From a bacterium (GTDB lineage Bacteria; UBA8248): a stretch of 64,000 nt of DNA. Positions 4,958 through 64,000 of this stretch are shown here, in pieces (the stretch's first letter is position 1; each line of letters begins with the position of its first letter). The stretch spans positions 32,001 through 96,000 of the forward strand of contig OZ241875.1 in assembly GCA_965203325.1 (NCBI GenBank), given 5' to 3'. A model generated the notes under the pieces. The model ran no database searches, had not been told where the DNA came from, and saw only the letters and a list, made by a program, of their open reading frames with translations. The position numbers and the translations under genes are program-made.

Positions 4958-5931
4958 GCGATGCGTTGACGTTTCAGGAAGTGATCATGGGGCTGGAGAA
5001 GTTCTGGTCGCAAAAAGGATGCGTCATCCAGCAGCCATACGACATCGAGGTGGGCGCGGGCACCATGAACCCGGCCACTTTTCTGCGCGCCCTCGGCCCC
5101 GAGCCCTGGAAGGTGGCCTACGTCGAGCCCAGCAGGAGGCCCACGGACGGCCGCTACGGTGAGAACCCGAACAGGCTGCAGCATTATTATCAATATCAGG
5201 TGATTCTGAAACCCTCGCCCATCGACGTGCAGGAGCAGTATCTCGAAAGTCTGGAGAGTTTGGGAATCGACCCGCTCGAGCACGATATCCGCTTCGTCGA
5301 AGACGACTGGGAATCCCCCAACCTGGGCGCTTGGGGTCTGGGCTGGGAGGTGTGGCTCGACGGTATGGAGGTCACGCAGTTCACGTATTTTCAACAGGCG
5401 GGCGGGCTGGACCTGGAAATGGTGTCCGCGGAATTGACTTATGGAATCGAGCGCATCGCCATGTACTTACAAGAGGTGGAAAGCGTGTATGACCTCATCT
5501 GGGCGCGGGATACCGATGACGGAGTCATCAAATACGCCGACGTGCACCATCAGACGGAAGTGGAGTTCAGCCATTACAATTTCGAGGAAGCGGACGTAAA
5601 AATCCATTTTGATATATTTGATAAATACGAGGCCGAAGGGTTGCGTCTCGTGGAGAAGGGCCTCACGTTTCCCGCCTACGATCACGCCCTCAAGTGTTCG
5701 CACACCTTCAATCTTCTGGATGCGCGAGGAGCCATCAGCGTGAGTGAGCGGGCGCGCTATATCGGCAGAATCAGAAAAATGGCGCGTGCGTGCGCCGAGA
5801 GCTATCTGAAATCCCGCTATGAGGCCGGTTTCCCTCTCATCAGGGACGAAGCGCAGCGAAAGGAACATCTCGATCTTTACGCCGCTCAATTCGATACGGA
5901 AGAAGCGAAGTCGAACGTGGGCGAGGAATAG
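4954..5931 (+). CDS. glyQ: Glycine--tRNA ligase alpha subunit
   Basis: [55 protein letters not shown]. Confidence 0.97.
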
Positions 5932-13919: not shown

Positions 13920-14420
13920 ATGGATAATCCGGTGGCGGGTGATCTGAATGGACGGGGACTGCGGATCGGCCTCGTCTCGTCGCGTTTCAACGATTTCATC
14001 GTGACGCACCTCGTCCGGGGGGCCGAGACGGCTTTGCGGCAATGCGGCGTATCCGGGACCGATATTGCGCTCGTACAGGTGCCGGGTTCGTTCGAGCTTC
14101 CGGCGGCTGCGATGCGGATGGCGAAATCGCAGAAATATGACGCCATCGTATGCCTGGGCTGCGTGATACGGGGCGCAACGTCTCACTACGATCTGGTGTG
14201 CGCCGAGGCGACGAAGGGCATCGCCCAGGTGGGTACTCAGACGGGAGTGCCGACCATTTTCGCCGTCGTCACGACGGACACGATTGAGCAGGCCATCGAG
14301 CGCTCGGGAACGAAGATGGGAAACAAGGGATACGAGGGCGGGCTGGCGGCCGTGGAGATGGCGAACTTGTTTTCGAAAATGGATGCGGATGGGAACGACG
14401 CTCCCGAAGAGGGAAAGTGA
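13920..14420 (+). CDS. ribH: 6,7-dimethyl-8-ribityllumazine synthase
   Basis: [34 protein letters not shown]. Confidence 0.96.
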
Positions 14421-17345: not shown

Positions 17346-19025
17346 GTGACCACGCCACCTGAATCCTCTAATCCGGGACGAGAAGAAAATACTTTTGCCG
17401 CTGCGCCGGCAGGGAATGGCGATTCCTCGCCGGAAGAGAGTATTTCCAGGTTTGCGGGTCCCGTCAGCCTGGCCACTCTCCTCAGTCGCGTTGCGGGTTT
17501 TTTCCGGGATTTGCTCATCGCCAAATTTTTTGGCGCCGCGATGATGGCCGATGCCTTTTTCGTCGCATTTGCGATTCCCAATCTTTTCAGGCGCATGTTC
17601 ATGGAAGGGGCTCTGAGCTCCTCGTTTCTTCCTGTTTACTCCGATGTGCGAGAGCAATCCGGGATCAAAGAAGCAAAAAAATTCGCCGGCGGCATGTTGG
17701 TGTTTCTCATCTTCGCGGGGAGTGCGGGTTGCGCGATAGGGATTTGGTTCGCTGACCCTTTGATGAGAGTGCTGGCGCCTGGTTTTTCGAGCAACCCGGA
17801 AAAACTGGATCTCGCGGCGCAACTCACCAGAATTATGTTTCCGTTCATTATTTTTATCGGCCTGTGGGCGGTCGCAGCCGGTATGTTGAACGCGGCGCGC
17901 CGCTTTTTCGTGCCCGCTTTCGCACCCGCGCTCCAGAACGTGGTTATCATCTTTGCTCTTTTGCTGGCGGATTTTTGGGCAAACAGGGCGGAAGCCATCC
18001 GCTGGCTCGCCTGGGCCGTCGTCATTGGCGGGGCGGCGCAATTTTTCTTCCAACTCCCCTTCATGGGGAAATTACGAATTTTACCGCTTCCCTCTATTCC
18101 TTGGAGGGTGGAGGGTGTCGGTCGATGTCTGGCGCTGATGGGGCCGGCGGCTCTAGGAGGTGTTGTTTTTCAGGTCAATGTTCTCGTTGACAGGTGGCTG
18201 GCTTCGTTCCTGGCGGAAGGCTCCATTTCTTATCTCTACTATGCGAACCGATTGGTTCAGCTCCCTCATGGCATATTGAGTCTCGCGGTGGTGTCCGCCG
18301 TTTTGCCGGTTTTGGCTGATTATGCGGCGCAAAACAGGGAAAATTCCGCATCTGGAGATTCCGAGCGGGGCGCCATGCTCGAGGCGGGGAGGTTGACCCT
18401 GTTCATCACCATTCCCTCTTCATTCGGCCTGATGGTTTTGGCCCACCCGATCATGGAGGTTATTTTCGAGCGGGGCGCCTTTACGCAAACCCATACCGCT
18501 GCGAGCGCAGCCGCGCTGCGGGCTTATGCGGCGGGGTTGATGTTTTTCGGGATCACGAGACTTTTGGCCGGGGTGTTTCACGCTCGATTGAACACGAGTT
18601 TTCCGGTGAAGTGCGCCAATATCGCTGTCCTCGCCAACGTGGCCCTCAGCGTCGCCCTGATGTTCCCTCTCGGGTTTATCGGCCTCGCGCTCGCCACGTC
18701 GTGCTCAAGCGCCTTAAACGCGGTGCTGTTACTGCGAGGCGTCATGCGCGAGTGGAGCGATTTTCCGAAAAGGGAGTTGGCTCATTCCCTGAGCAGGCTT
18801 CTGGGGCTTGGAATCTTGACGGGGGTTCTCGCATATTTCGTTCATCTTCAACTCGTTCATCTGCAATTGTGGGATGCGCAGCACTCGTCGGCCCTCAAAT
18901 TGGCGATGATGATGCTCGAGGTATCCATGGCCGCCTGCTTCTATATTTTCATGGCGAAAAAAATCGATGCTTCTTCGTATGAAACCTGGCGCCGTTTCAC
19001 TCGCCTCACATGGAGAAAATCCTGA
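17346..19025 (+). CDS. murJ: Lipid II flippase MurJ (MviN)
   Basis: LSRVAGFFRD, DAFFVAFAIPNLFRR, YYANRLVQLP, FERGAF. Confidence 0.94.
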   Translation: MTTPPESSNPGREENTFAAAPAGNGDSSPEESISRFAGPVSLATLLSRVAGFFRDLLIAKFFGAAMMADAFFVAFAIPNLFRRMFMEGALSSSFLPVYSDVREQSGIKEAKKFAGGMLVFLIFAGSAGCAIGIWFADPLMRVLAPGFSSNPEKLDLAAQLTRIMFPFIIFIGLWAVAAGMLNAARRFFVPAFAPALQNVVIIFALLLADFWANRAEAIRWLAWAVVIGGAAQFFFQLPFMGKLRILPLPSIPWRVEGVGRCLALMGPAALGGVVFQVNVLVDRWLASFLAEGSISYLYYANRLVQLPHGILSLAVVSAVLPVLADYAAQNRENSASGDSERGAMLEAGRLTLFITIPSSFGLMVLAHPIMEVIFERGAFTQTHTAASAAALRAYAAGLMFFGITRLLAGVFHARLNTSFPVKCANIAVLANVALSVALMFPLGFIGLALATSCSSALNAVLLLRGVMREWSDFPKRELAHSLSRLLGLGILTGVLAYFVHLQLVHLQLWDAQHSSALKLAMMMLEVSMAACFYIFMAKKIDASSYETWRRFTRLTWRKS

Positions 19026-19060
19026 GCAATGGGGAGCATGCGGTGAGGAAGGAAAAGTTT

Positions 19061-19996
19061 TTGACTGAAGAGCACGAAAAAAATAATCCGGTTTCGCTGG
19101 ATACGAGCCTGGTCGATATTTTAAGGACTTTCAGGGATTTCCTTCTTATCGAGCGCCGCCGTGCGGTGAACACCGTCGAGAGTTACGGGCGCGACGTCGA
19201 ATCGTTTTTCTGTTGGCTCCAGGAAAACGGGGACGTTTCACCGGCGAATTGGTCGAAGAACATCGTCATTGATTATCTCAAGGATAAGCGGGAGAAGGGG
19301 AAATCGGACACCACGCTGCGGCGGCACCTGGCGTCCATTCGCGCGCTCGCCAGATTGTTGGTTCGCGACGGGTACGCAAAGGAGGATTTTACGGCGGACA
19401 TTGCGCAACCTGCAAAATGGAAGCGTTTGCCCAAGACCCTTTCGCAAGAAGAGATGTCAAAGATTTTGCTGGCGCCTGACGGCAAAACACCGCAGGCGGT
19501 GCGGGACAAGGCGATGTTCGAGCTTTTGTACGCCACCGGCATGCGCGTCAGTGAGATCATTCGACTCAAACTCAACCAGATTGAACTTGAATCGGGTTTT
19601 TGCATTGTTCACGGAAAGGGAGATAAGTCCCGGCTTGTTCCCATAGGAGATGAAGCGAAAGATATGCTTGCGGATTATCTTGGCGCCGCTCGACAAAGTC
19701 TGCTACGCGCCCGGAAATCGGATTATGTATTTCTCACGGGCCGGGGAGGACCCATGACCCGGCAAGCTTTTTGGGCGCGGGTCAAGAGATGGGCCAAAGA
19801 AGCAGGCGTGGGCAAAAGCGTGAGTCCCCATGTGTTTCGACACAGCTTTGCAACTCATTTGCTCAATCACGGGGCCGATCTGCGGGCCGTTCAGGCGATG
19901 CTCGGGCATTCGGATATTTCCACCACCGAGGTCTACACGCATGTTGATAGGCAAAAACTGCGGGGACTCTTGGACAAGAGCCACCCGAGGGGGTAG
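19061..19996 (+). CDS. xerD: Tyrosine recombinase XerD
   Basis: NTVESYGRD, LYATGMRVSE, GKGDKSR, SPHVFRHSFATHLL, LGHSDISTTEVYTHV (full R-K-H-R-H-Y set); start 19061 TTG or 19010. Confidence 0.92.
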   Translation: MTEEHEKNNPVSLDTSLVDILRTFRDFLLIERRRAVNTVESYGRDVESFFCWLQENGDVSPANWSKNIVIDYLKDKREKGKSDTTLRRHLASIRALARLLVRDGYAKEDFTADIAQPAKWKRLPKTLSQEEMSKILLAPDGKTPQAVRDKAMFELLYATGMRVSEIIRLKLNQIELESGFCIVHGKGDKSRLVPIGDEAKDMLADYLGAARQSLLRARKSDYVFLTGRGGPMTRQAFWARVKRWAKEAGVGKSVSPHVFRHSFATHLLNHGADLRAVQAMLGHSDISTTEVYTHVDRQKLRGLLDKSHPRG

Positions 19997-61466: not shown

Positions 61467-62141
61467 ATGGCCAGAACTTTCAGAAAAGAAATCCGGCAGC
61501 CCGACGCGTTGCAAACCCATGGAAGAAAAGCAGTTCTTTGGTTTGTAGAGAATCAAAAGTATTTCTACCTGGGGCTTGGCGTTGTTATTTTGGTGGCGGC
61601 CGTTTTTGTGGGCTACCGCATGTGGGATGAGCGCGCGCGCGAAAAAGCGTTCCTGGCTTATGGCTTGGCCAATATCGCTTCTCTGGATAGCAAGAGCGGC
61701 GAAGCGGTGGAAACCGCCTTCCAAAAGGTGGCCGACGACTACCCGCGTTCGCGTCCGGGTCTTCTGGCGCGCTTGCGACTCGCGGCCCTGCTGCGCGAGA
61801 GGAAACAATATCAAGGCGCGCGGGCGCAATATGAGCTTGTGGCGAAGAGCAGCGTATCCTCAGAGACCGACAAGGAATTGGCGAAGCGCGGAATCGCCTC
61901 CGTATTGATGCTTGAGGGAGCCTGCGCGGAAGCCGTCCCGATATGGAAGTCGATTCTTGAAAAAGGGAGTCTTTTCACGTCCGAAGATCTGTATATCTCG
62001 ATTGCCGATTGTCAGGAGAAGCTTGGACGATTCGAGGATGCGCGCAAGACTTATGAAGAGTTGAGCAAAAAGCACCCGGAGAGTCCGTTTCTGACAGAAC
62101 GAATCCGTGCGAAGTTGGGCGGCGAAAAGCCCGTCAAATAA
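61467..62141 (+). CDS. Membrane-anchored TPR protein (YfgM-like)
   Basis: RKEIRQPD, N-terminal TM, V.DDYP.S..G.LA.L.LA, EDARKTYEEL..HPES. Confidence 0.75.
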   Translation: MARTFRKEIRQPDALQTHGRKAVLWFVENQKYFYLGLGVVILVAAVFVGYRMWDERAREKAFLAYGLANIASLDSKSGEAVETAFQKVADDYPRSRPGLLARLRLAALLRERKQYQGARAQYELVAKSSVSSETDKELAKRGIASVLMLEGACAEAVPIWKSILEKGSLFTSEDLYISIADCQEKLGRFEDARKTYEELSKKHPESPFLTERIRAKLGGEKPVK

Positions 62142-62171
62142 AGTCCATTCCGAAAATTCACTGCATACCGC

Positions 62172-62199
62172 AATGTCGATAAGATATGTTATGTAAAAT
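62172..62199 (+). other. dif-like XerC/XerD recombination site (C arm left, D arm right)
   Basis: AATGTCGATAA-GATATG-TTATGTAAAAT; 11-6-11 layout; D arm 10/11 identical to E. coli TTATGTTAAAT. Confidence 0.75.
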
Positions 62200-62242
62200 T
62201 ATATCCCGGGCCGTTGCCTGCGCTTTCGTCTGACTCCCCTGC

Positions 62243-63481
62243 GTGATAGACTGGGCCATGAAGCCACCCGCTCAAGGAAAACCCCTTGCCGTTCGTGGAC
62301 ATCCCGTGGATGAAGGCGCCCTTCGCCAGATTGAGTGCTGTCTCGCCGATGATGAAGCGCGGGCAGGCGCTTTGTGCGCCGACCACCACCTGGGATATTC
62401 CATGCCCATCGGCGGCATTATCGCCTACGAGAATGCCGTATCGCCGAGCGGTGTGGGCTATGACATCGCTTGCGGGAACAAGGCCGTCAAAACGGACCTG
62501 AAGGCCTCGGACGTGCGCCCTGAACTATCTGGCATCATGGACGAGATATTTCGCGACCTCGAATTCGGCATGGGCCGGAAAAATCCCGAACCTGTCGACG
62601 ACCCGCTTTTCGATGATCCCGCGTGGAAGTTGTCGCCCGAATTCGAGGATTTGAAACCGCTAGCGCGCTCGCAGTTGGGCACCATCGGCGCGGGCAATCA
62701 CTATGTCGATTTATTCGTCGAAGAGGCGAACGACGCGCTTTGGGTCGGGATTCACTTCGGCTCGAGAGGCTTTGGCCACAAAACATGCACCGGATTCTTG
62801 AATCTGGCGAAAAACCGCAAATTCGGCGCCCCTCCTGCCCGTGAGGAGATGCACTCTCCAGCCACCGTCTTTTCTCTCGCCTCCCCCTTGGGAGAAGACT
62901 ATTTCGCCGCCATGAAACTGGCCGGGCGCTACGCCTATGCCGGAAGGGATTATGTCGGGGCCCGGGTACTGGACATCCTAGGAGCCCGCTCAGAATGGGA
63001 AGTGCACAACCACCACAATTTCGCGTGGGAGGAAGAGCACGACGGTGTGCGCTGTATCGTGGTTCGCAAGGGCGCCACGCCGGCCTGGCCGGGCCAGAAA
63101 TGTTTTATCGGCGGGAGCATGGGAGATCTCTCCGTCATCGCCGAAGGCGTGGAGACGCCGGGGTCGAAATCTCTGCTCTACTCCACGGTTCATGGTGCGG
63201 GCCGTGTAATGAGTAGAACCAAGGCGGCCGGGCGAAAAAGATGGCGCAAGGGCCGTCTGATCCGCAAGGGCGGCGCTATCACGCGCGAGAAAATGAACGA
63301 GTGGGTCGAGGACATCGGCGTCGTGCTTCGCGGAGCGGATACGGACGAGGCGCCACAGGCGTACAAACGACTTGAAGAAGTATTGAAACTCCATGACGAC
63401 GCACTTCGCATTTTGCACGTGCTCAGGCCCATTGGAGTGGCGATGGCGGGCCCCGATGTCCAGGATGAATTCAGGGACTAG
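62243..63481 (+). CDS. rtcB: RtcB-family 3'-phosphate/5'-OH RNA ligase
   Basis: ADHHLGY, GYDIACG, GTIGAGNHY, HFGSRG, HHN, RKGATPA, GSMG, HGAGR, DEAPQAYK; start 62243 GTG or 62258 ATG. Confidence 0.93.
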   Translation: MIDWAMKPPAQGKPLAVRGHPVDEGALRQIECCLADDEARAGALCADHHLGYSMPIGGIIAYENAVSPSGVGYDIACGNKAVKTDLKASDVRPELSGIMDEIFRDLEFGMGRKNPEPVDDPLFDDPAWKLSPEFEDLKPLARSQLGTIGAGNHYVDLFVEEANDALWVGIHFGSRGFGHKTCTGFLNLAKNRKFGAPPAREEMHSPATVFSLASPLGEDYFAAMKLAGRYAYAGRDYVGARVLDILGARSEWEVHNHHNFAWEEEHDGVRCIVVRKGATPAWPGQKCFIGGSMGDLSVIAEGVETPGSKSLLYSTVHGAGRVMSRTKAAGRKRWRKGRLIRKGGAITREKMNEWVEDIGVVLRGADTDEAPQAYKRLEEVLKLHDDALRILHVLRPIGVAMAGPDVQDEFRD

Positions 63482-63489
63482 CTTGGGGT

Positions 63490-63517
63490 CTATACCATAA
63501 TGCAATTTATCAAGTTC
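63490..63517 (-). other. Second dif-like site, inverted relative to the first
   Basis: Minus strand GAACTTGATAA-ATTGCA-TTATGGTATAG; same GATAA-N6-TTATG core; D arm 8/11 to E. coli. Confidence 0.5.
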
Positions 63518-63622
63518 TACATCATAAATATCTATAAATAATTTATTTGAAGGTTTTTCATCATGTTCCTGCAAACGCGAATTCCGAAAGACACACTTCC
63601 CGGTTGAATGCCTTGTTTATTA

Positions 63623-64000
63623 TCACGAAAAAACCGGGTCGGTCCGGCCCTCCACGTCGAGTTCGAATCCCGCGTCATGTATCATTCGATGGGCCACGGC
63701 CGACTCCTGGCCGGATGTGGTGAGGTAGCCGTCCACGAAAATCGAGTTGGCGGTATAGAGGGCCAGAGGCTGCAATTCCCTGAGTTGGACTTCCCTTCCC
63801 CCGGCGACGCGAATTTCAGAGCGGGGGTTGTAGAAGCGCATCAGGCAGAGCAGCTTGAGGCAGAAGATCGGCCCGAGTAACGGCCTACCTTCGAGCGGCG
63901 TGCCGCCGATCGGATTGAGGAAGTTTACCGGTATGGATTCGGGCGCGAGCGTGCTCAACGCCTCACACACGTCGATGATGTCCTCAGCGCTCTCCCCTTG
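63623..64000 (-). CDS. bioB: Biotin synthase, C-terminal part (5' beyond window)
   Basis: GES.EDIID, PESIPVNFLNPIGGTPL, IRVAGGRE, ANSIFVDGYLTTSGQ. Confidence 0.9.
   Translation of the reverse strand, partial: QGESAEDIIDVCEALSTLAPESIPVNFLNPIGGTPLEGRPLLGPIFCLKLLCLMRFYNPRSEIRVAGGREVQLRELQPLALYTANSIFVDGYLTTSGQESAVAHRMIHDAGFELDVEGRTDPVFS

Follow-up and report, generated by a model that had tools for sequence, protein, structure and literature searches.

An rtcB gene beside the chromosomal dif site of an uncultured Nitrospinota bacterium, and a probable dif look-alike at its far end

Introduction

Does an RNA ligase gene, rtcB, that lies between two inverted sequences resembling dif, the XerC/XerD recombination site, belong to a mobile Xer module, or does it simply sit beside the chromosome's own dif? 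The first-pass annotation of this locus had proposed the former, namely, that rtcB was captured as, or can be inverted or mobilized as, a Xer cassette. The window (the whole stretch of 64,000 bp that was analyzed) comprises bases 32,001 to 96,000 of the closed 4,392,711-bp genome (60.4% GC) of an uncultured Nitrospinota bacterium, hereafter G000; coordinates refer to the window unless they are given as genome positions. Our analysis points with good confidence to an ordinary chromosomal dif, an AT-rich look-alike, and a resident rtcB rather than to a Xer module.

A dif site at the replication terminus

The left 28-mer (62172 to 62199, plus strand) reads AATGTCGATAA-GATATG-TTATGTAAAAT and consists of an XerC arm (62172 to 62182), a 6-bp central region (62183 to 62188), and an XerD arm (62189 to 62199). 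The two 11-bp arms, whose inner parts are GATAA and TTATG, show partial dyad symmetry about the center, and the site ends 43 bp ahead of the GTG start of the RtcB open reading frame; sequence, coordinates, and gap are exactly as first reported. We scanned the genome with a log-odds dif matrix built from the homologous sites of 28 relatives, with G000 excluded. The left site was the single top match in the 4.39-Mb genome, at 52.4 bits over its full length and 40.6 bits over the arms, versus about 19 bits for the runner-up. A score so far above chance, obtained in the kind of genome-wide background scan that the first-pass annotation had suggested, bears out its view that the left site is probably a real Xer target. 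The runner-up itself, at genome position 3,518,850, lies far from the terminus in a 46%-GC stretch, looks promoter-like by eye, and was treated as a chance match.

The 22-bp core of the site, GATAAGATATRTTATGTAAAAT, was found with at most 2 mismatches in 42 of 51 Nitrospinota genomes and in 39 of the 41 other members of the family, while a reversed-pattern control gave 0 matches. It is single copy in 41 of the 42 genomes that carry it, the exception being a fragmented assembly (G044) with two copies. Across the family, dif varies in its outer XerC arm, whereas its XerD arm and central region hardly change, and the site is perfect or almost so in every rtcB-bearing genome compared at the locus. 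Elsewhere in G000, the 11-bp XerD arm recurs exactly at just one place, genome position 298,062 (plus strand), 204 kb from dif and without an XerC arm.

The left site is also where a dif would be expected. Cumulative GC skew, calculated for G000 only, is lowest near 2.30 Mb and highest along a plateau from 94 to 106 kb, and the left 28-mer, at genome position 94,172, falls on that plateau. The dnaA gene (TIGR00362, 530 bits) is at genome position 2,314,511, on the skew minimum, which splits the circle into 50.5% and 49.5% as measured from the left site. The suggestion that the locus might be at the terminus is thus supported by both the skew maximum and the position opposite dnaA. GC content is 49 to 55% over the terminus-proximal positions 14000 to 52000 of the window, compared with 60% genome-wide. 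The xerD gene reported at about 19 kb is present (19127 to 19990 within an open reading frame at 19010 to 19996, plus strand; TIGR02225, 348.1 bits, over the cutoff). The best match of the XerC model in G000 is an XerC-like gene at genome position 402,591, with 320.8 bits, just below the cutoff of 335.15, and FtsK is encoded as well (FtsK_SpoIIIE, 230 bits).

Published criteria for dif prediction are a 28-bp length, partial dyad symmetry, occurrence in one copy, and location at the skew shift point, as set out in the relevant part of PMC3025954. Since the left 28-mer has all four properties, we call it dif, and it appears to be the genuine, single chromosomal dif of this Nitrospinota bacterium, predicted from its sequence to recombine. 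FtsK is described in PMC5357621 as reaching dif at septation and activating XerD, whereby dimers are resolved. By analogy with this established mechanism, XerC and XerD would bind the two arms of the site, and FtsK, located at the septum, would activate both recombinases on the two sister copies of dif once replication is over, resolving chromosome dimers.

As a separate observation on the recombinase complement of G000, the XerD model has 35 matches in all, and tyrosine-recombinase genes occur in many adjacent pairs across the genome (for example, at genome positions 737,593/738,797, 972,048/973,315, 1,220,685/1,221,593, 3,279,105/3,280,340, and 3,831,271/3,832,491). These pairs look like repeated multirecombinase mobile elements.

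Gene order and history of rtcB

The rtcB gene (62243 to 63481, plus strand) is a 412-amino-acid open reading frame with a GTG start (Pfam RtcB, E = 4.2e-66) on the XerD-arm side of dif. Its conserved neighbors are, to the left of dif, a TPR_21-domain gene (61467 to 62141, plus strand; Pfam TPR_21, E = 1.4e-14) and, to the right, the converging 3' end of bioB (63623 to 64000 and running past the window, minus strand; Pfam BATS, E = 1.1e-22), which is intact as a full open reading frame of 381 amino acids (locus L001). Upstream of dif lie EF-G-like, SPOR, MerR, and TPR_21 genes. No integrase, rtcR, or rtcA was found among the neighbors scanned (EF-G-like, SPOR, MerR, TPR_21, and the BioB C terminus), as the first-pass annotation had noted for this segment.

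Within the genus, 22 genomes gave the locus, and one (G021, 87% complete) gave no match. The order TPR-dif-rtcB-bioB, in a single orientation, was found in 15 of the 22 loci, one of which (G020) has a frameshifted rtcB. In that genome the gene (L021, 1482 to 2718) lies in two frames, split at about residue 317, which may reflect an incipient pseudogene or an assembly error. Six genomes (G003, G005, G006, G008, G015, and G019) have TPR-dif-bioB without rtcB, so that the predicted single-site alleles do exist in relatives, and in the remaining genome (G002) the contig stops just past dif. Among eight loci from five other genera, six have TPR-dif-rtcB on one strand, one has dif-rtcB, and one is on a contig too short to tell. 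The TPR gene is upstream of dif in every one of the 22 loci of the genus, as well as in six loci of other genera. Place and orientation of rtcB relative to dif are constant in all 22 rtcB-bearing loci, which span six genera, and the gene is never inverted. Contigs assembled from four of the 24 sequencing runs (X19, X20, X21, and X1), which drop rare variants, contained no rearrangement joints, and the entire stretch is covered without change by one X19 contig, its probable source.

The distance from dif to rtcB in the other genera is 195 to 284 bp in four loci and 1.5 to 2.5 kb in three. In the two inserts scanned from these three long-gap loci, the extra DNA is a pair of glyoxalase-family genes. 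In genus g17, these are two tandem glyoxalase/VOC genes (PF00903) between dif and rtcB, whose strand is opposite that of TPR and rtcB; the gene pairs are at 1872 to 3320 of L044 (G041) and at 5406 to 6345 of L038 (G043). One further genome, G008 of the study genus, has on the XerC-arm side, between TPR and dif, an A/C-rich insert of 590 bp that contains direct repeats (L016, about 1700 to 2259) and was seen in this genome alone. The same locus carries a second dif-like site beyond bioB, AATTATGATAT-GAAACC-TTATGGAAAAC (L016, 3516 to 3543, plus strand), in direct orientation and about 1.25 kb from dif. At 20.5 bits over the arms, this site outscores every non-dif site in G000; it overlaps the apparent start of the next gene, as read from the sequence by eye, and is missing from the related genomes G006 and G001.

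We compared RtcB phylogeny with a flank tree made from MerR, TPR, and the last 146 amino acids of BioB (510 columns; outgroup G043). The two trees have their supported clades in common, that is, G000 and G012 joined by G016, G010 with G011, G007 with G022, and G001 as basal, and the RtcB tree recovers the genus as monophyletic against the other genera. Mapped on the flank tree, the state of rtcB changed at least three times, while the gene was kept in all 14 scored members of the crown clade. Traces of the gene are left in two of the six genomes without it: the G005 spacer still encodes RtcB residues 78 to 113 (44% identity, E = 1e-5), and the rtcB leader and start region are kept in G003 and G005, with local scores of 28 and 22, respectively, against a shuffle maximum of 14 to 15. 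A search for remnants in G006, G008, G015, and G019 found nothing above shuffles; loss in these genomes was deduced from the tree and from the other genera. Where it can be told (G003 and G005), the rtcB-less alleles look like products of decay or deletion.

These results indicate that rtcB is an old, vertically inherited resident of the locus and, as far as sequence comparison can tell, not a mobile cassette. The proposal that it is a captured, invertible, or mobilizable Xer cassette is contradicted by its fixed place and orientation, by the congruent trees, and by the background score of the right site described below, and the phylogenetic check that the first-pass annotation had suggested came out against capture. 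Since the address of dif between the TPR gene and rtcB would have been retained from before the family's genera split, we regard rtcB as an ordinary vertically inherited neighbor, later deleted or decayed, we presume, in several species; both rtcB and the TPR gene would be bystanders flanking dif. The other Nitrospinota families that we searched have a different RtcB of about 500 amino acids, ~40% identical over part of its length, so that an ancient acquisition of rtcB at the base of the family is possible; no second site is left from any such event.

The dif-like sequence downstream of rtcB

The right 28-mer (63490 to 63517, minus strand) begins 8 bp past the rtcB stop codon and reads GAACTTGATAA-ATTGCA-TTATGGTATAG on the minus strand. 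The two 28-mers are inverted, and their XerD-like arms point toward rtcB; in sequence, spacing, and geometry, the original description of this site was exact. It has the inner core GATAA-N6-TTATG in common with dif and nothing more. The central regions, GATATG and ATTGCA, already described as different, are identical at only 1 of 6 positions. The inner XerC arm, GATAA, is an exact match, whereas the XerD arm is the weaker half: 7 of its 11 positions agree with the arm that is invariant in the family, and 4 do not.

With the matrix described above, the right site scores 5.3 bits over the arms, versus 40.6 for dif, and -11.0 bits over the full length; it had been called the weaker match, and it is so by a wide margin. 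Its score is equaled at 99 (arms) and 614 (full) positions in G000, and uniform placement of these would put 0.07 and 0.42 such positions, respectively, within 1.5 kb of dif. Shuffles of its own spacer reach the score in 6.5% (arms) and 36% (full) of cases; among 141-bp windows of equal AT richness, 11 of 92 reach it as well. With 5 occurrences in G000 when both strands are counted (2 of the 5 being those that flank rtcB), the exact core GATAA-N6-TTATG is rarer, and 0.06% of 20,000 shuffled versions of the 141-bp spacer contain it, but this core was defined post hoc from these two very sites. Whether the right site beats chance is equivocal. Judged by its sequence, it scores at background for AT-rich DNA and does not appear to be credible as a complete Xer site.

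The spacer between rtcB and bioB (63482 to 63622; 141 bp, 33% GC) lies between convergent genes and is fast-evolving and genus specific. Directly after the rtcB stop codon, a homologous block can be recognized in 9 of the 15 rtcB-bearing species of the genus, but the strict core is found in 2 of the 15, G000 and G012, the latter being 95% identical to G000. At the position of CATAA, G010, G011, and G004 have CTTAA, and G013, G017, G018, and G020 have other letters; the XerD-like arm drifts freely within the block, which is shortened by 3 to 4 bp in the sister species G016 (by eye). The best inverted-orientation dif scores across the 15 spacers range from -13 to 6.3 bits, and sequence divergence is faster in the block than in the coding DNA beside it. 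In the other genera there is no such AT-rich block (the rtcB-bioB gap of G043 is 54 bp and GC rich), nor was a dif-like site found after rtcB in the seven other-genera loci that retain this DNA. Taken as a Xer site, the right 28-mer thus fails on its background score, its XerD arm, its central region, and its conservation. A right site at background and a vertically inherited rtcB without a conserved right flank are together the outcome that the first-pass annotation itself had named as speaking against its reading.

Searches for other signals in this region were likewise negative. An Rfam scan of 61900 to 64000 with E values up to 10 gave three subthreshold noise matches only. A promoter and terminator scan found no promoter-like sites and two terminator-like sites inside rtcB, which is the number expected from shuffles. 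No small open reading frame in the rtcB-bioB spacer is conserved over the 15 species. We also considered the spacer as a repeat or as the end of a mobile element and rejected this, as it has no second copy in G000.

Alternative explanations

Several explanations would assign the right site a role, and they draw on partly overlapping evidence. Were rtcB a D-type module between two inverted XerC/XerD sites, captured and open to inversion or exchange, then the inverted geometry with internal XerD-like arms, the shared core, the terminus location in a genome with xerD, and the varying presence of rtcB among congeners would all be as expected. Such a module is hard to reconcile with a right site at background whose core occurs in 2 of 15 species, with the constancy of rtcB across 22 loci in six genera, or with congruent RtcB and flank trees; losses, too, leave rtcB fragments rather than clean site-to-site junctions, and the inversions and deletions reported in the part of PMC13141974 dealing with such events used identical or near-identical spacers, whereas the two here agree at 1 of 6 positions. 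We give this explanation almost no credence. The same holds for the idea that the right site binds XerD alone, in the manner of the Bacillus subtilis XDS sites that unload SMC at the terminus. Sites of this kind are known (described in part of PMC11894783), and this one is at the terminus, 1.3 kb from dif, but the XerD-like arm is precisely its weaker half, with 4 of 11 positions mismatched, and the site is absent from the sister species. Moreover, of 17 genome-wide matches to the XerD arm with at most 1 mismatch, none besides dif is within 200 kb, and matches with at most 2 mismatches number 40 in the first 200-kb bin versus 21 to 40 in others, with no clustering at the terminus; a XerD-only site here is thus barely conceivable.

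An older event would leave a fainter signal, and the AT-rich spacer with its core might be what decay has left of a second site, one that belonged to an ancient Xer-exploiting element, or to a dif duplication, by which DNA was imported next to dif. The zone beside dif is indeed plastic, as seen in the two glyoxalase-family genes of g17, the repeat-rich 590-bp insert of G008, and the several losses of rtcB; the AT-rich spacer is genus specific, and the family's 412-amino-acid RtcB differs from that of other Nitrospinota families (about 40% identity). Integration at dif, however, yields direct repeats, whereas this site is inverted, its central region is not homologous to that of dif, the spacer is single copy in the genome, and the seven loci of other genera show no dif-like site. 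Because the core letters are confined to two close species, with CTTAA in three others and different letters in four more, the likeness to dif looks derived rather than ancestral, and we consider a relic very unlikely. The homologous block after the stop in 9 of 15 species makes some function of the block conceivable, for instance as a 3' element, or as a binding site used by a regulator or a nucleoid protein, that resembles dif by coincidence, and a second AT-rich motif about 15 to 20 bp further on (by eye) could be read in the same way. An element of this kind is nevertheless unlikely, given that the block diverges faster than the coding DNA on either side, is missing from other genera, and has no Rfam match above noise, promoter or terminator consensus, or conserved small open reading frame.

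An ordinary chromosomal dif with an AT-rich look-alike and a resident rtcB is, by contrast, highly probable. Against it stand the rarity of the exact core (2 of its 5 copies in the genome flank rtcB, and 0.06% of spacer shuffles produce it) and the fact that a divergent XerD arm can occur in known attachment sites of elements that exploit Xer, as noted in the part of PMC5357621 on such elements. Under this preferred explanation, the resemblance of the right 28-mer to dif is fortuitous or near-neutral, in an AT-rich, fast-evolving spacer; the 28-mer would have no role in dimer resolution and would not be expected to recombine with dif. More speculatively, a base change from CTTAA to CATAA in the lineage of G000 and G012 may have created an inverted dif core 1.3 kb from dif that XerC, for which GATAA is exact, could occasionally synapse with dif, flipping rtcB or breaking the terminus, and the XerD-arm side of dif may more broadly be a hotspot of Xer-associated gene gain and loss, with rtcB lost about three times or more and glyoxalase genes inserted in one genus. 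We think this highly improbable.

Significance and comparison with known Xer systems

The dif/XerCD system is textbook knowledge, to which the Nitrospinota dif described here is an addition. Our literature search found no paper treating Nitrospinota together with a dif site and none joining rtcB, a dif site, and XerD. For a family of Nitrospinota that are uncultured and mostly associated with sponges, the results locate the replication terminus and identify the dif sequence (core GATAAGATATRTTATGTAAAAT), and they show that dif has a stable gene address there. The core could serve as a single-copy terminus marker for closing and orienting assembled genomes of the group. The locus is also a worked example of how a main dif and an AT-rich look-alike can mimic a dif module. 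Beyond annotation, we attach little importance to it.

The closest resemblance in geometry is to the pdif/dif modules of Acinetobacter, chromosomal ones included (described in parts of PMC13141974, PMC6449649, and PMC12907356), in which a single gene lies between inverted 11-6-11 sites in the same D-module arrangement. The Acinetobacter plasmid and chromosomal modules covered in PMC13141974 are bounded by complete, inversely oriented sites. Here, the geometry is present, but we found neither complete sites nor matching centers, no second context, no inversion, and no sites traveling with their cargo; the right site is incomplete and unconserved, and the left site is the main dif rather than an additional one. 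Integrative mobile elements exploiting Xer (IMEX), such as the CTX, VGJ, and TLC phages and the gonococcal genetic island, resemble this locus in having DNA beside dif and a second site with a degenerate XerD arm, but the section of PMC5357621 on these elements describes them as bounded by directly oriented sites, which have the XerC arm and the central region in common with dif. In G000 the sites are inverted, their central regions agree at a single position, and rtcB is vertically inherited. The XDS sites at which XerD unloads SMC in B. subtilis (from the part of PMC11894783 that concerns them) offer a likeness in that a partial dif-like site is near dif at the terminus, but in G000 the XerD half is poor (7 of 11), XerD arms are not clustered at the terminus, and the site is not conserved. 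The left site, in turn, matches the dif/XerC-XerD/FtsK system of dimer resolution known from E. coli, B. subtilis, and most bacteria (as outlined in parts of PMC5357621 and PMC3025954), with the same 28-bp 11-6-11 layout and partial dyad symmetry, a single copy placed opposite the origin, where the skew shifts, and genes for an XerC-like protein, XerD, and FtsK in the genome. It differs from known dif sites in its lineage only, that of uncultured Nitrospinota known mostly from sponge metagenomes, where dif keeps its fixed address between the TPR gene and rtcB across six genera.
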